Assembly (NCBI GenBank): GCA_963593015.1
Contig: CAVAYV010000015.1
Span: forward strand, 5,976 to 69,975
DNA: 64,000 nucleotides
Direction of reading: 5' to 3'
Origin: a bacterium
Lineage (GTDB): Bacteria > Bacillota_I > Bacilli_A > RFN20 > CAG-826
The translations under genes were made by a program, and so were the position numbers. A model generated the notes under the pieces. That model was given only the letters and a program-made list of their open reading frames with translations, ran no database searches and was not told the DNA's origin. Numbering within the stretch: the first letter of the stretch is position 1; every line of letters starts with the position of its first letter. Shown one piece after another: positions 13,324 through 33,798 of the stretch.

Positions 13324-13349
13324 AGATTTATTTTAATTAAAAGCCATAA

Positions 13350-13437
13350 AGAAAACCACCGCACAGGAGGATTTGATTTAAGGCTGCTACATTCCTGTCC
13401 TGACCTGGTTCGTCAATTCGACCTCGCGATGGCGTTC
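13350..13437 (-). ncRNA. ffs: Small SRP RNA (4.5S / scRNA-like)
   Basis: The minus strand reads …CCAGGTCAGGACAGGAATGTAGCAGCC…, matching the universally conserved SRP RNA domain IV (E. coli CCAGGUCAGGUCCGGAAGGAAGCAGCC) with a GGAA tetraloop on an ACA/UGU stem. The 5' end (GCCATCGCGAGG) and 3' end (CCTCCTGTGCGGTGG) pair to close the molecule. A TATAAT lies just upstream on the minus strand. Confidence 0.75.
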
Positions 13438-13453
13438 TTATTATACTAGATTT

Positions 13454-23135: not shown

Positions 23136-23285
23136 GAGTTATCTCTCCCTTTGTTTTTTTAATTATTTTTAATAGTAATAATAAGGTGGTGTGAATTTGT
23201 GGATAACTTTCGTATTTTAAGAAATTTATCGTACTTATTTACTTATTATATCATCCATCACTCATCTAATAAATTAGATGTTATC
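23136..23285. promoter_or_regulatory. dnaA-dnaN intergenic oriC segment: AT-rich putative unwinding region with a perfect DnaA box TGTGGATAA at 23198-23206
   Basis: A 150-bp AT-rich spacer containing a perfect 9-mer box. Firmicutes origins are typically bipartite, with the DNA unwinding element between dnaA and dnaN. Confidence 0.6.
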
Positions 23286-24674
23286 TTATTTTAACCTCTT
23301 TTTTATCTCCGACATGGCCTTTTTTGAATCAGGGTCTGTTTTCAACATTTTCTCCACTTTTGAGATGGCACTCATCACCGTTGCGTGATCCTTCCCGCCA
23401 AAAGCTTCACCGATTTTTGTATATTGGGCGTCGAGCAAGTCGCGGCAAAGATACATTGCTGTGTGCCTGGCTAATGCGATTTGGGCCGTTCTTATTTTTC
23501 CAGTCAATTGCGTTGGCGATAAATTGTAATAATCAGCGACGACATTGATTATTTTAGCTATGGACAAAGAATCTTCGTCTTTTTTCACGTCGATTAATCC
23601 GCTGACTGAGTCTATTGCCGTTTGCAGATTGATATGGCTGGCTTGAGCGATTTCCGTCGCGTAGAAAAGAAGCCTATTCAAAGCGCCTTCCAACTCACGA
23701 ACGTTCGTGGAAAATTTTGTCGCAAAGTAAGATATGACTTCCGGATCGAATTGGTTGATGTCTAGCCCATTTGCTTGAATTCTTAATTTTAAAATGGCTT
23801 CGCATGTCTCTTTGTCCGGCGGGTTGATGGATAAAGGCAGCCCCTGAGAAAAGCGGCTTTTTAATCTTTCGTCTAGTCCGTTTAACTTCGATGGGTGCTG
23901 ATCAGATGTTATAACTATCTGCTTTCCCGCTTGGTAAAGGGTTTGGAAAACGCTAAAGAACATCTCTTCGGTTGATTGTTTGCCTACTAGGAATTGGATA
24001 TCGTCCACAAGTAGCACATCCACGGAATTTTTGAAGAAATCTTTAAGATTTTGATCTTCTTTGTTTCCTTTTACGAAGGCAACGTATTCTTCGAAGAAGT
24101 CCTGAGTGGTGACATACAAAACTTTCGTGGATGGGGAGTTTGCTTTTATCGCGTTCCCGATTGCGTGCAGAAGATGAGTTTTGCCTAATCCGGAATCACT
24201 ATATATAAGCAAAGGATTATATAATTTGCCGGGCGCTTTGCTTATAACTAAAGATGCTTGATAAGCTTCTCGGTTTGATGCGCCAACGACGAAATTTTGA
24301 AAGGTGTAAGACTGATTCAAAACGCTGTTGGAAAAGAATGAAGGTTTTTTCTTTTCGCCCATTACCTTGCTTTGTATGTCGGATTCTGTCACGAATTTAA
24401 TTACAAAGTCGCTCTCGGTGACATCCCTAACGATTCCTTCGACCAAATCTAACAAAGTAGTCTTTAGATAATGAGCCGCAACCGCAGAATCCGCGACCAC
24501 TATCATTTCATTTCCGCGAATTTCATAAACGTAAGTCGAGCTAAAAAAAGAATTAAAAACGTCATCCTGCCCCTTGGAAGAGAGTTGCACTTTGATTCTG
24601 TCTAGAACCCTATTCCACAAAGCAGAGATTTCGCTTACTGATTTATCCATAAAAATACTTTGAAAATTTACCAC
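23286..24674 (-). CDS. dnaA: Chromosomal replication initiator DnaA
   Basis: Walker A GLGKTHLLHAIGN, AAA+ domain, and a C-terminal DNA-binding domain. The ORF-track start is GTG at 24674. An in-frame ATG at 24650 (MDKSVSEISALW…) is an equally plausible start. Confidence 0.9.
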   Translation of the reverse strand: MVNFQSIFMDKSVSEISALWNRVLDRIKVQLSSKGQDDVFNSFFSSTYVYEIRGNEMIVVADSAVAAHYLKTTLLDLVEGIVRDVTESDFVIKFVTESDIQSKVMGEKKKPSFFSNSVLNQSYTFQNFVVGASNREAYQASLVISKAPGKLYNPLLIYSDSGLGKTHLLHAIGNAIKANSPSTKVLYVTTQDFFEEYVAFVKGNKEDQNLKDFFKNSVDVLLVDDIQFLVGKQSTEEMFFSVFQTLYQAGKQIVITSDQHPSKLNGLDERLKSRFSQGLPLSINPPDKETCEAILKLRIQANGLDINQFDPEVISYFATKFSTNVRELEGALNRLLFYATEIAQASHINLQTAIDSVSGLIDVKKDEDSLSIAKIINVVADYYNLSPTQLTGKIRTAQIALARHTAMYLCRDLLDAQYTKIGEAFGGKDHATVMSAISKVEKMLKTDPDSKKAMSEIKKRLK

Positions 24675-25040
24675 GTTTCCACAAGAAAATACATAGCAAA
24701 ATTGTAAAAATTAAGTTTTCCACAATTAAAACAACAAAAAGACTAGTTTTAGTGCCAAATAATAACTTTTAAACAAAAATTAATTGTGGAAAACGTGTGG
24801 ATAACTAATTTAATGTTTTAAAATGTGGGAAACTATAAAATGTAAGCGCATTCATAACAGTTACAATTTGCACAAATAATAGACAATATCGAAAGAAATA
24901 AAACTTAATAACAAAATGTGGATAAATTATAAACAACGCATTTTTCGATGAATAAGCTATTTTTTGTATATGCTTATTGGTTGGAAAACCTGTCTTTAAG
25001 AATTTTGGCTATCTTCAGTATATTTGAGCGTTTTTTGGTT
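24675..25040. promoter_or_regulatory. oriC DnaA-box cluster upstream of dnaA
   Basis: Perfect TGTGGATAA boxes at 24796-24804 and 24917-24925. One-mismatch boxes at 24785-24793 (TGTGGAAAA) and 24716-24724 (TTTTCCACA). Weaker boxes at 24825-24833 and 24675-24683. The region is AT-rich. Confidence 0.7.
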
Positions 25041-25102: not shown

Positions 25103-25237
25103 ATGAAAAAAACTTATCAACCATCTAAGGTCAAGCACAGCAACAAAGCTGGCTTCCGCGCTAGAATGGCTACCCACAACGGCCGTAAGGTTCTCAGCCG
25201 TCGTAGAGCTAAAGGCCGCGCTAAAATCGCTGACTAA
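25103..25237 (+). CDS. rpmH: 50S ribosomal protein L34
   Basis: 44 aa, [44 protein letters not shown]. It is below the ORF-track length cutoff and was found by reading the sequence. Confidence 0.9.
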
Positions 25238-25278: not shown

Positions 25279-25632
25279 ATGAAGCGCGTAAATCGTGTAA
25301 GAAAACATCAAGAATTTTCTTCCATTATTCATGAGTCTCGGTCTGTCAAAAGCAAGCACTTCTCAATTTATTACCACGTTAAAGAAGAACCTTTGACTAG
25401 AATCGGCATCTCCGTTTCAAAGAAAAACGGGGGAGCTACCATCAGAACCCTTATTAAACGGCAAGTTCGCGCTATGATCGGGGCGAACTATAACCTCAAC
25501 CTCCCTTACGATATTGTCATTATCGTTCGGACAAATTATCAAACCGATGAGTTTGCTTCTAATACGAAGGAACTTATTGAAAACCTAGGGAAGATCGGAG
25601 AACAAGGCAGTGAAAAAAACAAACAAAATTAA
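25279..25632 (+). CDS. rnpA: Ribonuclease P protein component
   Basis: 117 aa, basic, at the conserved rpmH-rnpA position. Confidence 0.85.
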   Translation: MKRVNRVRKHQEFSSIIHESRSVKSKHFSIYYHVKEEPLTRIGISVSKKNGGATIRTLIKRQVRAMIGANYNLNLPYDIVIIVRTNYQTDEFASNTKELIENLGKIGEQGSEKNKQN

Positions 25633-27208
25633 GCTGTTTGGCGCAATCGCTATTGGCGGTGCGGCTTTAATGCTGACTGGCTGCACCCAAACTTTTTGCT
25701 CGAGCACCGATTTGGCCAACATTGCTTACCCTTATGAACAAGGGGTAACCGTTTATTGCGACAAGACGGATATTCCTAATGATTATAAAGATGTCGCTTT
25801 TAAGGTTTTTGATGACAATGATACTCTTTATGCCTATATCCCGGTGGATAAGGACGGAAACTTCACTTCGAAAAAGAGCACATATTTGGTTAACTCGATA
25901 ATCAACGTCGCCAAAGGCTCTAACTACAATTACACAATCCCATCTCAACTATTCTTTGAAAAGATTGACCAAAAAGTTTTAGAGAAAGCGATTTCTACCG
26001 CTGTCAGCGAAAAATACGAAGTCAACGGAAAAACCGTTACCGGTACCGCGAATTTAACTGCGAAAGATATCAATGCCTTCACCGTAAACGACAGTGATGG
26101 CGAGTCTAATAGCGATGCCGAAATCAACCTTGGCATTCTAAGAGAATATGGGTATGTCAAATTCTTGGGTGAAAACGAACAGGGGCAACGAGTTTTTTGG
26201 ACCAATTGGAATACTTGGCTATCTGAAATCCGCGCCGAAATCGGTTATGAGCTTTGCCCAACAACTGAATTCGTCAACTTCTATCAATCAACCGTTTACA
26301 CCAAAATTTCCTCTTTCAGAACTTGTGTAGCTACCAGAGATGGGAAATACGGACATTTTGGTAGTCAAAGCAACTGGGAAGTCAATATTCAAGCCAAATC
26401 CTATGGCGATGCTTGGGGCAAAGGCTTCTTAGAAGGACTTCTTGTTTACCCAGTCGCCTGGATGGTTGATACCTTTGCTTATGGAATCGATCCAGCTTTG
26501 AGTGGCTTTGGCCAGATTATCTCTATTATTTGTGTCACTTTGATTGTTCGTGTTGCCTTGACTTTATTAACGCTTAAGGGAACGCTTGATCAGCAAAAGA
26601 TGCAAGCCCTTCAGCCTGAATTAGCCAAGATTCAAGCTAAATATCCAAATAGCAACACCAACGCTAGTCAAAGAAGCCGTATGACTCAAGAGCAATCGGC
26701 ATTATATAAAAGGAATAAGATCAACCCATTTTCATCGATCGTCATTCTTATTATTCAGTTCCCTGTCTTCATCTCCGTTTGGAGCGCTTTGTCTGGTTCT
26801 AGTGCCTTATCGTCTGGAAGCTTCTTGAATCTTCGTTTATCAGACACAATCAAAGACGTTGTGTTCAACTTCTCCGGTGCCTGGTGGACTAATGAGACCG
26901 GTTGGTGGACTGCAGTCGTGTTGTTCTTGCTGATGGTCCTCTTCCAAACCATGTCAATGTTGCTTCCACAAATGATTAACAAACGTCGGCAAAAGAATAT
27001 GCCTAAGTTAAATAAGAATCCTGCTCAAGACAAAATGAGCAAGCAGATGAAATACATCAGCTGGGGCATGTTAATCTTCACAATTATCATGGGCTTCTTG
27101 TTACCATCTGCGATGGGTGTCTATTGGGGAATCGGTGCTTTGATCTCAATGTGCCAAACTATCATCACTCAAGCCGTTATGGCTAAAAAGACTAAAAAAG
27201 CAAAATAG
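25610..27208 (+). CDS. yidC: Membrane protein insertase YidC/Oxa1 family, lipoprotein type with a large N-terminal extracytoplasmic domain
   Basis: GTG start. Lipobox LMLTGC. About 300 aa of extracytoplasmic domain precedes the conserved five-helix YidC core (…PELAKIQAKYPN…NPFSSIVILIIQFPVF…). At 532 aa it is roughly twice the usual Firmicutes YidC length. Confidence 0.8.
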   Translation: MKKTNKIKLFGAIAIGGAALMLTGCTQTFCSSTDLANIAYPYEQGVTVYCDKTDIPNDYKDVAFKVFDDNDTLYAYIPVDKDGNFTSKKSTYLVNSIINVAKGSNYNYTIPSQLFFEKIDQKVLEKAISTAVSEKYEVNGKTVTGTANLTAKDINAFTVNDSDGESNSDAEINLGILREYGYVKFLGENEQGQRVFWTNWNTWLSEIRAEIGYELCPTTEFVNFYQSTVYTKISSFRTCVATRDGKYGHFGSQSNWEVNIQAKSYGDAWGKGFLEGLLVYPVAWMVDTFAYGIDPALSGFGQIISIICVTLIVRVALTLLTLKGTLDQQKMQALQPELAKIQAKYPNSNTNASQRSRMTQEQSALYKRNKINPFSSIVILIIQFPVFISVWSALSGSSALSSGSFLNLRLSDTIKDVVFNFSGAWWTNETGWWTAVVLFLLMVLFQTMSMLLPQMINKRRQKNMPKLNKNPAQDKMSKQMKYISWGMLIFTIIMGFLLPSAMGVYWGIGALISMCQTIITQAVMAKKTKKAK

Positions 27209-27220
27209 AGGAGCATTAAT

Positions 27221-27820
27221 ATGAAAGAATACACTGGAAAAAGCGTAGAGGAATGCTTAAACGAAGCAAGCTTAGAATTAGGCGTTCCCGCTGAACAAAT
27301 CGTTTATAAAGTCGTCGAAGAGAAAAAAGGACTGTTCTCTAAAAAAGTCTCTATCGAAATCTCGACTATTGATGATGCTGCCGAATATGCAAAATCATAT
27401 TTGATTGAGATTTTGAAAACCATGGGTATTGAAGCTTCTGCGGAGGCTAGAATTGAAGACGGGATCATTCATATCTCCCTTGATAGCCCACGCAATCCTG
27501 TTCTTATTGGGAAAAGCGGGCGCACTCTTCAAGCTTTGAATGAACTTGATCGCTTGGCTGTTTCAAATCATTTCCGCCATCGTTATAGAATTCTTCTTGA
27601 TGTCGGAGGATATAAAGAAGACAAATATTCCCGTTTGGCTTATTTGGCAAAACGCACTGCAAACCAAGTCTTAAAGAGTCACATCGATGTCCAATTGGAT
27701 CCTATGACTCCTGACGAGAGACGCGTGGTCCATAATGCTTTAAATGGCATGGAGCACATCAAAACCGAAAGCAATGGCGAAGGTCAAAACCGCGCTGTCG
27801 CGATTAAGTACATTGACTAA
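27221..27820 (+). CDS. jag: Jag/KhpB RNA-binding protein (Jag_N, KH, R3H)
   Basis: 199 aa at the conserved position after yidC, with a C-terminal R3H-like region. Confidence 0.75.
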   Translation: MKEYTGKSVEECLNEASLELGVPAEQIVYKVVEEKKGLFSKKVSIEISTIDDAAEYAKSYLIEILKTMGIEASAEARIEDGIIHISLDSPRNPVLIGKSGRTLQALNELDRLAVSNHFRHRYRILLDVGGYKEDKYSRLAYLAKRTANQVLKSHIDVQLDPMTPDERRVVHNALNGMEHIKTESNGEGQNRAVAIKYID

Positions 27821-27831
27821 CAATCGATTAA

Positions 27832-27858
27832 GGCGTTAGTGAAACTAGCGCCTTTTCC
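27832..27858 (+). terminator. Terminator after jag (GGCGTTAGT-gaa-ACTAGCGCC plus TTTT)
   Basis: A 9-bp stem with one GU pair and a T-run. Confidence 0.55.
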
Positions 27859-28155
27859 TTATATATAATATATGTATTCAATAAATGGGGATTGTCGTTC
27901 TTTTTCTTTTTATAAAAAACAATCATTTTTATAGCCACAACCATTTTAAAAAAATACTTAACTTTTTAGATATTTGGAAAACATTAGCTATTATCAAATA
28001 AAAAAAGTACAGGTTAATTAACCACAATCAAGAAAGAATAATTCTTAGCCTTAAAAAATAGTTAAATTGTCTATACCTATTTTTTATTAAAACGCTTATA
28101 CTTACAAGGTGTTTAGCAGATAGAGTTTTAGCTCTAATGCTATTAGGAGGATTTT

Positions 28156-29433
28156 ATGAAAAAAAGCCGTTATGTTCTCTCACTTGTATTGAACATACTC
28201 GTAATTGCTGCGGTTGGCTTCGCTGTTAGCAATTATTTGATGCAATATCTTGCATTCACCCCAACTTACAAAGCCCAAGATTTAATTTTTGAATTTGGTG
28301 TGTTGTCCGCTGGATTTGTAGCCATCGTCGCCTTGATCAGCGTCATCAGCAACGTTGTTTGCTTAAGCTCTAATAAGCAAACATGCAAATTTGTTGGTGT
28401 CTTAAAATTGATCTCTGTTACTGTCGCCATCACTGCCGCCCTTAATTACTGGGTCGTTGATTTATTTGTTCTCCCTTATTTTGGATGGGGAAGCGCTTCT
28501 GATGTTTCTACTCTCACAAACTTCATGCTTGATTGGCATGCTCCACTTTTTATCACCATCGTTGCTCCAGCTTTAGTAGTCGTCGATTACTTCTTCTTTC
28601 AATTACAACCAAAAATGGGTCTTACCAATACTTTCTGGGCTTTAGTTCCAGCCGGACTTTATTTTGGTTTCTTCGGAATTAATTGTGTCATCTCGGAATG
28701 GACCTTACCTAACCATTATTTCTATGACATTCTTAAATTCAGCTCAATGGGTTGGTTAAAGATTGTTGATATCATCCTTTCTGGTGTTGTCGGAATGATG
28801 GTCATCACCTTGTTCGCTTTAGCAATCAGAAATGCCGTTCGTAAAGTTCACGTCAAAGATGGAATTGCTCCGGTTGCTGAAGAAGTTACTGAAGAAAAGA
28901 GCGAAACTTCTGAAGACGCTAACGGTGAAGAGATTGTTGCTCCGGCCGCTGAAGAAGCCGTCGAGACCAAAGAAGAGACTCCAGCAGCCGTTGAGACCAC
29001 GACCGTCGCCCCAGTCGCTGAAGAAGCCGTCGAGACCAAAGAAGAGACTCCAACCGCTGTTGAGACCACAACCGTCGCTTCTAATACCACAACCACCGTC
29101 GCTCCTGCCGCTAAGACGAGCACTGCTCCAAAGAAAACCGGTAAGAGGGTTATTATTGTGAAGAGCCCAGAAGATAAGATTCGTTCTGAAGGACTCGGAG
29201 TCCGCAAAGACTACGACACCGACGCCAAATCTGCCTATAAGTCAGTTTCTAGAGTCTACCACATCTCCAAACAAGCTTCAGGCAAATGGCAAGTTAAATT
29301 AGCCACCGGTGAAAGAGCTATAAAATTGTTCGACACTCAATTACAAGCTATCAATTACGCCAAAGCATTAGTGAGAACCCAAGGCGGAAGCATCCGCATT
29401 CACTCTGTTTCTGGCAAAATGAGAAAGGAATAA
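28156..29433 (+). CDS. Polytopic membrane protein fused, through an acidic Thr/Pro/Glu repeat linker, to a C-terminal DUF2188-like domain
   Basis: Strong RBS AGGAGG. Residues 1-230 carry seven or eight hydrophobic helices, followed by 23-aa tandem repeats. The C-terminus (…YHISKQASGKWQVKLATGERAIKLFDTQLQAINYAKALVRTQGGSIRIHSVSGKMRK) matches the DUF2188 pattern, which normally occurs in small standalone proteins. Confidence 0.5.
   Translation: MKKSRYVLSLVLNILVIAAVGFAVSNYLMQYLAFTPTYKAQDLIFEFGVLSAGFVAIVALISVISNVVCLSSNKQTCKFVGVLKLISVTVAITAALNYWVVDLFVLPYFGWGSASDVSTLTNFMLDWHAPLFITIVAPALVVVDYFFFQLQPKMGLTNTFWALVPAGLYFGFFGINCVISEWTLPNHYFYDILKFSSMGWLKIVDIILSGVVGMMVITLFALAIRNAVRKVHVKDGIAPVAEEVTEEKSETSEDANGEEIVAPAAEEAVETKEETPAAVETTTVAPVAEEAVETKEETPTAVETTTVASNTTTTVAPAAKTSTAPKKTGKRVIIVKSPEDKIRSEGLGVRKDYDTDAKSAYKSVSRVYHISKQASGKWQVKLATGERAIKLFDTQLQAINYAKALVRTQGGSIRIHSVSGKMRKE
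28870..29100 (+). repeat. In-frame 69-bp tandem repeat: two near-identical copies (28948-29016, 29017-29085) plus a degenerate upstream copy
   Basis: gctgaagaagccgtcgagaccaaagaagagactcca.c.gc.gttgagaccac.accgtcgc repeated with 4 mismatches per 69 bp. It encodes the 23-aa unit (A/V)AEEAVETKEETP(A/T)AVETTTVA(P/S). Confidence 0.85.
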
Positions 29434-29443
29434 GTTTCTCCGT

Positions 29444-30772
29444 ATGGGGAATACTATCGTTGCGCTTGCAACCGCTCCTCTTAAAGCCGCTCTCCACCTT
29501 ATTCGTATAAGCGGAGATGACGCCTTTAAGATTACCGACGAAATATTCACTCATGAGATTTCGGGCCTCCAAAAGAGGTCCGTTTTCCTTGGTAATATCG
29601 TCGATGGTGCCGAAATCATCGATAACGTTGTTTTAATTGCCTACCCAGGTCCAAAAACCATGACCGGAGAAGATGTCGTTGAAATTTCTTGCCATGGATC
29701 AATGATCATCGCAAATCAAATTATTTCCGCTTATTTGGCTAGAGGGGCGAGATATGCTACGCGCGGAGAATTTTCAATGCGCGCCTTTTATAACGGCAAG
29801 ATGGATTTGATTGAAGCGGAAGCTGTCAATGACATGATTAACGCCACAACAAAAGAAGCCAAAAATCTTTCTTTGATGAGTCTATTAGGGAAAACAAGCT
29901 CTCTTATTGCTCCTTTGAAAAAATCTCTGGCGGATCTATTGGCCTTAGTCGAAGTAAATATCGATTATCCTGAATACACGGATATCGAAGAGGCTAACGT
30001 TGAAACAATATCAAATGCCATAAAGCCAATCCGTGAGGAAGTCAAAAAACTTATCAAAGATGGGGAAGAAGGTATCATCATTCGCCAAGGAATTAAGGTT
30101 GCGATTGTCGGTGAGCCTAATGTTGGGAAATCATCATTGCTAAACGCTTTGTTGCATGAAGATAAAGCTATTGTAAGCGATATACCGGGGACTACAAGGG
30201 ATGTAGTCGAAGGGGATATCAATCTTAAAGGCATTACCTTGCATTTGCTTGATACCGCCGGAATTAGGAATGAAGGGGATTCGTTAGAGAATCTTGGCAT
30301 TAAGAAAAGCGAAAAGATGATTGAGGAAGCGGATTTGGTCATCATGGTTTTAGATTCTACAAAAGAAATGAGCGAAAATGATAAACGTATCCTTTCCTTA
30401 ACTGAAAATAAGAAAACCATCATTGTTTATAATAAAGCGGATTTATTGACTGAAAAAGATGATAAAAAGCTTTATATCTCCGCAAAAGACGAAGATATTG
30501 ACGGATTATTGAATAAAATCTTTGAAGTTTTAGGTGTTTCTAGCGATGCTTATTCAAACCCTTCTTTATCGAATGTCCGTGAACTTGGACTTTTAAGAAA
30601 AATCGATAACTACCTTGAAGAAGCTGAAAACGATTGCGCGAACAATTTGCCAATCGATTTGATTTCCGTCAATTTAAGTGCCTCATATAACGCCGCCAGA
30701 GAATTATTAGGAGAAGAAGCCACTACCGATTTAACCGATGAGATCTTTAGCCGCTTCTGCGTTGGAAAATAA
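29444..30772 (+). CDS. mnmE: tRNA modification GTPase MnmE (TrmE)
   Basis: 442 aa with an N-terminal THF-binding domain, G domain (GEPNVGKSSLLNAL, DTAGIR) and the C-terminal CxGK motif (…FCVGK). Confidence 0.9.
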   Translation: MGNTIVALATAPLKAALHLIRISGDDAFKITDEIFTHEISGLQKRSVFLGNIVDGAEIIDNVVLIAYPGPKTMTGEDVVEISCHGSMIIANQIISAYLARGARYATRGEFSMRAFYNGKMDLIEAEAVNDMINATTKEAKNLSLMSLLGKTSSLIAPLKKSLADLLALVEVNIDYPEYTDIEEANVETISNAIKPIREEVKKLIKDGEEGIIIRQGIKVAIVGEPNVGKSSLLNALLHEDKAIVSDIPGTTRDVVEGDINLKGITLHLLDTAGIRNEGDSLENLGIKKSEKMIEEADLVIMVLDSTKEMSENDKRILSLTENKKTIIVYNKADLLTEKDDKKLYISAKDEDIDGLLNKIFEVLGVSSDAYSNPSLSNVRELGLLRKIDNYLEEAENDCANNLPIDLISVNLSASYNAARELLGEEATTDLTDEIFSRFCVGK

Positions 30773-31555
30773 ATGATAATCGATTCCCATTGCCATCTGA
30801 ATGACGAGAGAATATACCCAAAAAGAGAAGAACTCGTCAAAGACGCTGTCTCGAAGGGCGTATCTTTTATTTTGGTTCCTGGGTGGGATTTGGAGAGTTC
30901 TCGTTTAGCGGTAAAAATCGCTCACGAATTTTCCGAATGCTTTGCTTTTGTCGGATTTCATCCAGAGAATCTTGATTTTATCAATGATGAAAAATTAAAA
31001 GAGATTGCAGATCTTGCCAAAGACAGCAAAGTCATCGGCATTGGTGAAATTGGCTTGGATTACCATTGGTTCAAAGATATAAAAGATCACGAAAAACAAA
31101 AAGAATGGTTTATCCGGCAAATTGATTTGGCGAATGAATTAAATTTGCCTATTTCCATTCACGCCAGAGATGCCTCAGAAGATACATTAAATCTTTTGAA
31201 AAATCACCCAATAAAAAGAGGCGCAGTGCTTCATTGCTACAGCGGTTCTTCTGAGCTGTTGAAAGAATTTTCTAAGTTAGGCTACTACTTCGGCTTTGAT
31301 GGCCCCGTCACCTATAAAAATTCGATTACCCCAAAAGAAAACGCCAAAATTTGCCCGATAGATCGAATACTGATTGAAACTGATTCGCCATATCTTTCCC
31401 CAATTCCTTATCGAGGCAAAGATAATTGCCCTGGCTATGTTGTAGAGATAGCAAAAGCAATCGCTGAATTAAGAGGGATGGAACTCAAAGATTTGCTTGA
31501 AATTACGAGCGAAAACACAAAGAGATTATTTCACGTGGAACAAAAATATGAATAA
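30773..31555 (+). CDS. tatD: TatD family metal-dependent DNase/hydrolase
   Basis: MIIDSHCHLND…, 260 aa. Confidence 0.8.
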   Translation: MIIDSHCHLNDERIYPKREELVKDAVSKGVSFILVPGWDLESSRLAVKIAHEFSECFAFVGFHPENLDFINDEKLKEIADLAKDSKVIGIGEIGLDYHWFKDIKDHEKQKEWFIRQIDLANELNLPISIHARDASEDTLNLLKNHPIKRGAVLHCYSGSSELLKEFSKLGYYFGFDGPVTYKNSITPKENAKICPIDRILIETDSPYLSPIPYRGKDNCPGYVVEIAKAIAELRGMELKDLLEITSENTKRLFHVEQKYE

Positions 31556-32087
31556 ATATCCAGCAGTCATTGTAGTAGAAGGTAAAAGCGATCGAGACTT
31601 AATCGAATCTTTTATGGATGCGGATATAGTAATGACCAATGGCTCTGCTGTTTCACGTGAAACAATAAACTACATAAAAGAGATTAAAAAAGTGCGTGAT
31701 GTCGTTGTTTTGACAGATCCTGATGCCCCTGGAAAAAGAATCAGAGATGTTTTAGATGCCAACATCAACGGACTGCTTCATGCCTATGTTCCTAAAGAAA
31801 AATGCATTAAACACCATAAAGTCGGCGTCGCGGAGTCAAACAAAGATGTAATTTTAGAAGCTTTGTCTCATTTAATACCTTCTAGCAATGTTAAAGAACC
31901 TCAAATAACCGTTTCCGATTTATATGATTTGGGTCTTATTTCTGGTGATGAAGCCAAAAAGAAACGCGAAATATTAAATAAAAAATTGCATCTAGGATAC
32001 ACAAACGGGAAATCGCTTCTAAAAAGAGCAAACGCCTTGGGATTAACGAGGAAAGATTTGGAGGGCGCTTTAAATGGAACAAAGTAA
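31548..32087 (+). CDS. rnmV: Ribonuclease M5 (Toprim domain)
   Basis: Start taken at MNKYPAVIVVEGKSDRDL…, which overlaps the tatD stop by 8 bp. It contains a Toprim motif. Confidence 0.75.
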   Translation: MNKYPAVIVVEGKSDRDLIESFMDADIVMTNGSAVSRETINYIKEIKKVRDVVVLTDPDAPGKRIRDVLDANINGLLHAYVPKEKCIKHHKVGVAESNKDVILEALSHLIPSSNVKEPQITVSDLYDLGLISGDEAKKKREILNKKLHLGYTNGKSLLKRANALGLTRKDLEGALNGTK

Positions 32088-32889
32088 ATATTTTGAAAAA
32101 ATCGCTGAATATAAGCTTTTAGCCAAGCATGAAGTCGGACAAAATTTTTTGATCGACCCTTCTAGCTGCAGCAAAATCGTTGATGCCTTAGATCTTTCAG
32201 AAAACGATAAGGTTTTGGAAATCGGTTCTGGGGCAGGGTCTCTTTCCTATTTTTTGATGAAAAAGGAAGCTGATGCCACCCTGCTTGATATTGACGAAGG
32301 GCTAGTCACCAAACTGAAGGAGGATTTTGCCTCTTGCCCAAATATGAAACCTATCCAAGCCAATGCTTTAAAATACGATATGAAAGGATTTACCAAAATC
32401 CTTGGTAATTTGCCTTACTATATAACTTCTTCTCTGATAGAGGTTATTTTACTAAAAGGATGCGATGCTTCTAAAGCTGTTCTTATGGTTCAAAAAGAGG
32501 TTTATCCTCGTTTGGCGGCCTCCCCCAAAAGCGAAGGATATGGGCCTTTATCAATCTTGATTAGCTACCGCGCTTCAATCAAACGTGAATTCAATGTTCC
32601 AAGAACCTCTTTTGCTCCAATGCCCCATGTTGATTCTTTGGTTTTTTCATTGACGTTTAAAGACGAGGCCGATATTGAAAAGGCCTCAAAACTTTATTCT
32701 TTGTTGAACGCTTTGTTCTTACATCGAAGAAAAACAATCTACAACAATCTTTCTTTGTATTTAAAAGACGATGAAAAAGCTTCGCAGGTTTTAGAAAAAA
32801 CTCATATCTTAAAAAACAAAAGGCCAGAGGAATTAACATTAAATGACTATTTGGCATTGCTAGATTGTTGCGAAGAAATCAGAAACTAG
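32074..32889 (+). CDS. rsmA: 16S rRNA (adenine1518/1519-N6)-dimethyltransferase
   Basis: Contains QNFLIDP, GSGAGSLS and NLPYYIT motifs. Confidence 0.9.
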   Translation: MEQSKYFEKIAEYKLLAKHEVGQNFLIDPSSCSKIVDALDLSENDKVLEIGSGAGSLSYFLMKKEADATLLDIDEGLVTKLKEDFASCPNMKPIQANALKYDMKGFTKILGNLPYYITSSLIEVILLKGCDASKAVLMVQKEVYPRLAASPKSEGYGPLSILISYRASIKREFNVPRTSFAPMPHVDSLVFSLTFKDEADIEKASKLYSLLNALFLHRRKTIYNNLSLYLKDDEKASQVLEKTHILKNKRPEELTLNDYLALLDCCEEIRN

Positions 32890-32910
32890 TAGAATTGTTT
32901 CGTATAAAGT

Positions 32911-33798
32911 ATGTTTTTCTTTCATCGTTCCACCGAAATTCTTAAATCGTATGCAAAAATCAATGTGTCTTTGCATCTATTAGGAAAATTAGACAATGGC
33001 TACCACGAACTTGATATGGTCTTTTTACCGATTGACCTCCATGATTCCATTGAATTGTCTTTTTTGCCCAACAGTTATGATTCTTTCATTACTTGTGATG
33101 ATATAGGTTTGGCCAATAACCGCCACAACCTTTGCATGAAAGCCTTGAATGCGATGCGCGAGGAGTTTCATTTCAAAGAACAATTTAACATAGTCATTCA
33201 CAAAAACATCCCTTATGCTGCCGGGCTTGGTGGTGGCAGTTCGAATGCGGCTGCAATAATCCTTGCCCTCAATCGCGTTTTGCATTTAAATGCCTCAAAA
33301 GAACAACTTGAAAAGATTGCTTTATCGATCGGCGCCGATGTTCCATTTTTCTTTTATAACAAGCCTGCTAACGTCAAAGGCGTTGGTGAAATCATCGAAC
33401 CATTTCCTCTTGAACAAAGTTATCATGTTCTCATAGTTAAACCAAGCAAAGGCTTAAGCACTAAAGCGATTTATGAAGCTTCGGATGATTTTGTGTTCGC
33501 TCATGATAACAATCAAAGCACCGAGAAAGTCATAAAAGCCTTGCAAGAAGGAAATTTAGACGAACTTTCTAAGACCATGTCCAATGATTTGTATGAGCCG
33601 GCCAAAAAGATTCTCCCAGACGTTGAATTTGTTGTTAACGAAATGAAAAAAATGGGTTTGCCTGCTTCAATGATGACAGGATCAGGCAGCGCCTGCTTCG
33701 CCTTGAATCAGAACTTAAAAGCCATAAAAGAAGCCGCAAAATTCTTTGAGGGGAAAGGATACGCCACTTTTGTTACGCATACTCTTTCCTCAAAATAG
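32911..33798 (+). CDS. ispE: 4-diphosphocytidyl-2-C-methyl-D-erythritol kinase
   Basis: KINVSLHLLGK..DGYHELD plus the GHMP kinase motif PYAAGLGGGSSNAAA. Confidence 0.85.
   Translation: MFFFHRSTEILKSYAKINVSLHLLGKLDNGYHELDMVFLPIDLHDSIELSFLPNSYDSFITCDDIGLANNRHNLCMKALNAMREEFHFKEQFNIVIHKNIPYAAGLGGGSSNAAAIILALNRVLHLNASKEQLEKIALSIGADVPFFFYNKPANVKGVGEIIEPFPLEQSYHVLIVKPSKGLSTKAIYEASDDFVFAHDNNQSTEKVIKALQEGNLDELSKTMSNDLYEPAKKILPDVEFVVNEMKKMGLPASMMTGSGSACFALNQNLKAIKEAAKFFEGKGYATFVTHTLSSK

Follow-up and report, generated by a model that had tools for sequence, protein, structure and literature searches.

A DUF2188 protein with a six-helix membrane domain encoded between jag and mnmE in uncultured gut and rumen Bacilli

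The DNA analyzed here is a 64,000-nucleotide stretch of a bacterial genome (the window; GenBank assembly GCA_963593015.1, contig CAVAYV010000015.1, positions 5,976 to 69,975 of the forward strand; GTDB lineage Bacteria, Bacillota_I, Bacilli_A, RFN20, CAG-826). Between jag and mnmE it carries a gene, here called X, whose 425-aa product joins a predicted six-helix membrane domain, an acidic linker and a C-terminal DUF2188 domain. The best reading of this protein is a membrane-tethered binding module. Tentatively, and at somewhat less than even probability, we propose that it constitutively holds a conserved cytoplasmic ligand at the membrane, the ligand probably being a nucleic acid or a ribonucleoprotein. 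An earlier annotation made from the letters alone (the sequence-only reading) had described a polytopic membrane domain connected to DUF2188 through a disordered linker of variable length, and this layout held up. It had also taken the gene to be an insertion with a new architecture, and on both points the comparison with relatives led us elsewhere.

The C-terminal domain, which had been named as DUF2188 from its sequence pattern, is matched by the Pfam DUF2188 model with an E value of 2.6e-12 (47.1 bits against a cutoff of 22, model positions 1-59 of 62). The AlphaFold model predicts a beta-beta-beta-alpha-beta fold (predicted local distance difference test score, pLDDT, 82), with Y368, H369, T394, Q395, G411, S412, H416, R423 and K424 as invariant residues of the domain. 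The family includes MMSYN1_0080 of the minimal genome JCVI-syn3.0, described as a three-stranded sheet and helix extended by further strands, in agreement with the fold predicted here, and a solved member, RPA3313 (PDB 5JN6). Averaged over 19 syntenic loci, identity is 78% in DUF2188, 52-69% in the housekeeping neighbors and 32% in the membrane domain of the same protein. DUF2188 is therefore the most conserved segment of the neighborhood, above DnaA and MnmE, and this speaks for a macromolecular partner that is universal. This near-invariant basic domain contrasts with an acidic tether that keeps its composition but not its sequence, and with a membrane domain that evolves fast; the contrast is what leads us to the membrane-tether reading.

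The membrane domain contains six transmembrane (TM) helices by hydropathy (residues 7-25, 52-70, 79-97, 130-148, 162-180 and 206-224), and six long helices in the AlphaFold model (pLDDT 92.9), rather than the seven or eight counted previously. The distribution of Lys and Arg residues (10 in cytoplasmic segments versus 3 in external loops) follows the positive-inside rule and supports a cytoplasmic N-terminus. Since an even set of six helices follows, the C-terminus and with it DUF2188 are also predicted to be cytoplasmic, the point of topology that the sequence-only reading had raised.

Homology of the membrane half to the Pr6Pr family is supported transitively only. The Pr6Pr hidden Markov model (HMM) NF038065 scores the window protein below its cutoff (10.4 bits versus 30, E = 0.52). 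The same model matches 9 of 30 relatives (best E = 5e-9), and a profile of the fused N-terminal domains retrieves unfused proteins of about 220 aa that NCBI names Pr6Pr. The two share the six-TM layout and residues N13, P138 and Y169. None of the Pr6Pr motifs, KYFT.(D/Q)SN in TM2, H...P in TM4 and DWYGF, is complete in the window protein, which has EFGVLSAG, LFITIVAP and FYDILKF at these positions and keeps the Pro alone; it further differs from Pr6Pr in carrying the linker and DUF2188. As an observation on the same domain, one 737-aa protein (P0214) matches only the N-terminal six-TM domain (query 1-300), and its long C-terminus has neither a Pfam hit nor DUF2188. The Pr6Pr-like domain is thus also combined with cytoplasmic modules other than DUF2188.

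Pr6Pr in turn seems to form a bacterial branch of the superfamily of lipid enzymes around AIG1 and TMEM164. This superfamily, ATGY (AIG1/ADTRP, TMEM164, GPC1, YwaF and YpjA), consists of six-TM lipid acyl hydrolases and transferases, and is defined by a TM2 nucleophile (Thr, Ser or Cys) that faces an invariant His in TM4 (Reed et al.). In the window protein the family Thr is replaced by Gly48 and the family His by Thr134, a condition that resembles the hypothetical branch with a "divergent or missing active site" in that classification (Reed et al.). Every one of the 14 aligned unfused Pr6Pr proteins has the Thr/His pair, and so do 37 of 126 fused relatives; both residues are missing from most clades that carry the gene in the origin slot, as from the window protein. 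Catalytic-type residues have been lost repeatedly in this fast-evolving domain. The loss of the dyad indicates that the domain, as judged from its residues, is most likely a folded anchor or a lipid-binding pseudoenzyme, not an acyl hydrolase or transferase. What had been described as a polytopic membrane anchor is more specifically a probable Pr6Pr-family, AIG1/TMEM164-like domain without its Thr/His pair. Pfam searches with 30 N-terminal domains gave no match to an ATGY family and no other consistent match. A Foldseek search of the TM domain against the PDB gave no significant match and did not recover TMEM164, and TM-domain profiles run against PDB sequences matched potassium channels at chance level only.

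The linker between the two domains terminates in a basic segment, KKTGKRVIIVK. Among 96 fused homologs its length ranges from 41 to 262 aa (median 103), and its net charge is negative in 92% of them. Comparison with a 92% identical protein in public data (P0002) gave 77% identity in the linker, 98% in the TM domain and 100% in DUF2188. The acidic character and the tandem repeat read from the DNA were borne out, the repeat in 1.9 copies; the length of about 70 residues was not, as the linker extends over about 133.

The best structural match of the modeled domain is DUF1508, dimers of which have been likened to the PC4/Whirly folds that bind single-stranded nucleic acids. The YegP/DUF1508 HMM (PF07411, UPF0339) does not match the window protein, and the DUF2188 sequence and profile found nothing meaningful among PDB sequences, only the NTPase P4 at an E value of about 0.6. 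RPA3313 reportedly associates with ribosomes. The sequence-only reading had regarded DUF2188 as known solely from small standalone proteins; elsewhere it is also joined to other anchors such as DUF4234, or arranged in tandem arrays. Standalone DUF2188 paralogs of 69-115 aa (pI about 10) do occur in the loci surveyed below (L034, L035, L037, L038, L040, L046, L047 and L050). Their N-terminal tails are rich in Lys, Ala and Pro (AKK/PKK), reminiscent of histone H1-like DNA-binding tails, and some share a metagenome-assembled genome (MAG) with the membrane-anchored form (DAISHV01, DAIQMS01, JAIKYF01 and CAMYXQ01). In two loci (L006, 4989-6497, + strand; L008, 7062-8510, + strand) a second gene of parallel design lies directly 3' of the 6TM-DUF2188 gene, encoding a multi-TM N-terminus, a Pro/Glu-rich acidic linker and three YegP-type DUF1508 domains (Pfam E = 6.5e-29). 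This second gene repeats the design with the very domain that the DUF2188 model matches best, so that small beta-beta-beta-alpha domains tethered to the membrane may recur as a theme across these genomes.

The architecture is common among relatives. A word-indexed search returned 98 clusters (90% identity), all but a few of 310-470 aa and of the same layout, and a protein identical to the window protein is present in public data (P0001). An exhaustive phmmer search of 1.84 billion representatives found 537 relatives at E <= 1e-3, 28 of them at E <= 1e-30. The top 150 representatives (50% identity) are mostly fusions of 320-460 aa. The architecture is therefore not new, and an artefactual fusion of two genes was rejected, as the reading frame runs through unbroken and about 100 clusters show the complete architecture. 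The fused homologs are labeled only as "DUF2188 domain-containing protein", and none of the papers on DUF2188 that were consulted describes this fusion. We regard the protein as a new combination of two known, uncharacterized families and not as a new kind of system.

To place the gene in its genomic setting, we surveyed one genome per species (GTDB) and found 51 loci that encode a relative, all of them in MAGs. These come from human gut, rumen and faeces, and are labeled Bacilli, "Bacillales UBA" or Erysipelotrichaceae, with a few implausible labels. Six such loci (L001, L002, L012, L014, L041 and L047) have close homologs and Bacilli-type synteny, yet are assigned to Roseburia hominis, Lachnospiraceae, Bacteroidaceae or Coriobacteriaceae, probably through mislabeled bin taxonomy. 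The order dnaN-dnaA / rnpA-yidC-jag-X-mnmE-tatD-rnmV-rsmA-ispE is kept in 22 of the 51 loci, where the neighbors have diverged to about 50% identity. The GC content of the gene (0.41-0.49) is like that of its neighbors, so that composition gave no case for horizontal acquisition, and neither repeats, tRNA genes nor mobile genes were found at its flanks. Judged from synteny and composition, X is an old, vertically inherited core gene of an uncultured gut and rumen lineage of Bacilli. The sequence-only reading had foreseen that relatives might share the gene as a conserved neighbor with an assigned function; the conserved neighbor was found, the assigned function was not. Linkage to the origin is not universal. 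A homolog of 24% identity sits between dnaN and dnaA, and 14 fused homologs are non-syntenic and lie in housekeeping contexts (MgsA/RarA, ABC transporter, choloylglycine hydrolase, AsnA, PHP, methyltransferase), with no dnaA or dnaN within 6 kb in a relaxed search.

These data bear on several other explanations. A recent insertion or horizontally acquired gene would agree with the ribosome-binding site of its own, the terminator-like hairpin 3' of jag and the long AT-rich upstream spacer. The shared slot and the native GC content show that the gene is not an insertion, and the gap between jag and the gene is just 54-97 bp in most relatives, so that this explanation is effectively excluded by synteny. 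It is unlikely, but considerably less far-fetched, that the protein is a regulated membrane lipid enzyme, with the six-TM Pr6Pr/ATGY domain as its core and DUF2188 as a cytoplasmic regulator or sensor switch. For many fused members, catalysis is suggested by the Thr/His pair that recurs across the family and by the fold match to TMEM164. Purifying selection acts on the TM domain, as seen in its near identity to that of P0002 and in its conserved Asn, Pro and Tyr, and the existence of unfused Pr6Pr proteins suggests that DUF2188 is an add-on. However, the dyad is gone from the window protein and from most clades with the gene in the origin slot, where DUF2188 is almost unchanged. DUF2188 also greatly exceeds the putative catalytic domain in conservation, and it is found on non-enzymatic anchors as well.

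Quite improbable, in our judgment, is a chromosome-membrane tether in which the basic DUF2188 domain binds origin-near DNA and stands in for Noc/ParB-type genes. Such a role would fit the conserved position beside oriC and its DnaA boxes, the distant homolog between dnaN and dnaA, MgsA/RarA as upstream neighbor in three other loci, the H1-like Lys-rich tails of the paralogs and the lack of noc and parAB in the window. Many homologs lie far from the origin, however, a gene beside oriC need not act on it, and the absence of noc and parAB was judged only by simple motifs within 64 kb. A part in defense or in a toxin-antitoxin pair, with DUF2188 as a HicB-like antitoxin or as sensor of a membrane-disrupting effector, we consider still more doubtful. 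DUF2188 genes have been found in CapH/CapP-controlled operons and in a Thoeris island, and Burroughs and Aravind reportedly tied the domain to defense in 2020. Two PADLOC models of the candidate defense system PDC-S16 match residues 368-424 only (PDLC04941, E = 1.5e-11; PDLC04942, E = 4.8e-10). The multi-gene or defense-island context of PDC-S16 is absent, rnpA, yidC, jag, mnmE, tatD, rnmV and rsmA flanking the gene both in the window and in the 22 loci, and PDC-S16 is itself only a candidate system. A likeness of DUF2188 to the N-terminal domain of HicB, a small beta-sheet-plus-helix unit with a minimal RNase H-like fold, has been proposed (PMC13621843). In contrast to HicB, the window protein is membrane-anchored, belongs to a housekeeping operon and has no C-terminal DNA-binding domain: no helix-turn-helix or ribbon-helix-helix domain was hit in Pfam, and the protein ends 1 residue past the DUF2188 match. 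There is no hicA beside the gene, where jag and mnmE lie, and no small toxin-like gene or defense gene near it; the contexts of other homologs are likewise housekeeping, with no small toxin-like gene. Vertical conservation over deep divergence and native GC content are also unlike defense islands.

The preferred reading, a membrane tether for a cytoplasmic ligand, can be put as a mechanism. X would be a constitutively expressed, vertically inherited core membrane protein, whose TM fold once held a TM2 nucleophile and a TM4 His; with both lost in this clade, the fold would now serve as anchor or lipid-binding pseudoenzyme. On the cytoplasmic side the acidic tether would carry the small, strongly basic, near-invariant DUF2188, the putative functional core, which would bind a conserved cytoplasmic partner and keep it at the membrane. 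Through its charge, the tether may also compete with the ligand. This partner would probably be RNA or DNA, or else a ribonucleoprotein such as the ribosome, a preference based on the charge of the domain, the tails of its paralogs, the fold resemblance and the RNA-centered operon: the gene would head or sit within an operon for RNA processing and membrane insertion, rnpA-yidC-jag-X-mnmE-tatD-rnmV-rsmA. Going further, and with distinctly low confidence, we can picture a dead lipid-enzyme fold recruited as anchor for DUF2188 that ties the membrane to a central nucleic-acid machine. This would be either a ribosome or RNA receptor that serves co-translational insertion or RNA processing together with YidC and Jag, or an origin-proximal nucleoid link replacing Noc/ParAB. 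If true, either version would give DUF2188 its first physiological function.

The fusion joins two families that have no established bacterial function, and would place at the cytoplasmic face of the membrane a domain that is widespread, retained in JCVI-syn3.0 and recurrent in candidate phage-defense operons. The family also offers a natural series of six-TM forms with and without the Thr/His pair. Finally, a lineage represented by MAGs only keeps a stable variant of the canonical Firmicute origin cluster, rnpA-yidC-jag-X-mnmE-tatD-rnmV-rsmA.

Table 1 Features of X and its surroundings (window coordinates).
Feature	Position	Strand	Remarks
Coding sequence of X, 425 aa; Pr6Pr-like 6TM / acidic linker / DUF2188	28156-29433	+	Protein begins MKKSRY
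Predicted six-TM domain, assigned to the Pr6Pr family	28156-28851	+	Residues 1-232; probable AIG1/TMEM164 (ATGY)-like fold
Disordered acidic tether, rich in Glu/Thr/Ala/Val/Pro	28852-29250	+	Residues 233-365; about 133 aa, pI 4.5, charge -12
Tandem repeat in the linker	28947-29078	+	69 bp (23 aa), 1.9 copies; Tandem Repeats Finder (TRF) score 236, 93% matches
DUF2188 (PF09954)	29257-29430	+	Residues 368-425; pI 10.8, net charge +9
Ribosome-binding site AGGAGG	28145-28150	+	5 nt 5' of ATG, read off the sequence
Terminator-like hairpin and T-run	27830-27854	+	Directly 3' of jag; 11-bp stem
AT-rich jag-X spacer	27821-28155	+	335 bp; 27% GC (0.268) versus 40% for the window
jag (Jag_N/KH/R3H)	27221-27820		Upstream of X; Pfam
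rpmH	25103-25237		Start of the block rpmH, rnpA, yidC, jag; all four present
mnmE	29444-30772	+	Start 10 nt 3' of the stop codon of X

In the window, the open reading frame of X is uninterrupted, and the ribosome-binding site and AT-rich upstream region noted earlier are both in place. The long spacer is peculiar to the near clade of the window, the gap between jag and X being short in most of the more distant syntenic loci. The spacer is probably the promoter and 5' untranslated region (UTR) of an X-mnmE sub-operon. The hairpin after jag has equivalents in the near relatives L001, L002, L004 and L005, which also share with the window blocks of the spacer that include a palindrome (AAGAATAATTCTT, 28034-28046) and TATACT (28097-28102), a hexamer resembling a -10 box about 55 nt 5' of the ATG. 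Just 5' of the ribosome-binding site, at about 28110-28140, a short hairpin varies in sequence among genomes, with its pairing apparently kept. The palindrome, the TATACT box and the 5'UTR hairpin may be operator, promoter and 5' stabilizer. Rfam, at its gathering thresholds, places no family in the spacer; its only match in the window is the small bacterial signal recognition particle RNA (RF00169) at 13345-13440 on the minus strand (57.9 bits, E = 4e-10).

The spacer was also considered as oriC and rejected, as it holds a single DnaA box with one mismatch (28018), whereas boxes cluster at 24643-24925 and 23198. There are six in that region (24643-24925 and 23198-23206), three of them perfect (TTATCCACA), and they occupy the dnaA-rpmH spacer, of 26% GC, and the dnaA-dnaN spacer, likely a bipartite oriC. 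The genes dnaA and dnaN diverge from the rpmH-jag block, in which rnpA, yidC and jag were identified by Pfam.

Downstream, tatD, rnmV and rsmA adjoin mnmE without gaps, and ispE comes next. The tight X-mnmE junction is kept across the syntenic loci, and we infer that X, mnmE, tatD, rnmV and rsmA are co-transcribed. As the sequence-only reading had stated, mnmG, rsmG, noc and parAB are missing 3' of mnmE; none was found in the 64 kb with crude motifs, which is a weak test. In their place the open reading frames of tatD-rnmV-rsmA-ispE overlap or abut (30773-33798, + strand), a layout kept in 22 of 22 syntenic MAG loci, so that the missing genes are a trait of the lineage. In B. subtilis this block lies elsewhere. 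The window's YidC (25610-27208, + strand) is unusually long at 532 aa. Its 60KD_IMP domain spans residues 304-521 only, and is preceded by a lipoprotein-type signal (ending LTGC) and an extra domain of about 280 residues without a Pfam match.
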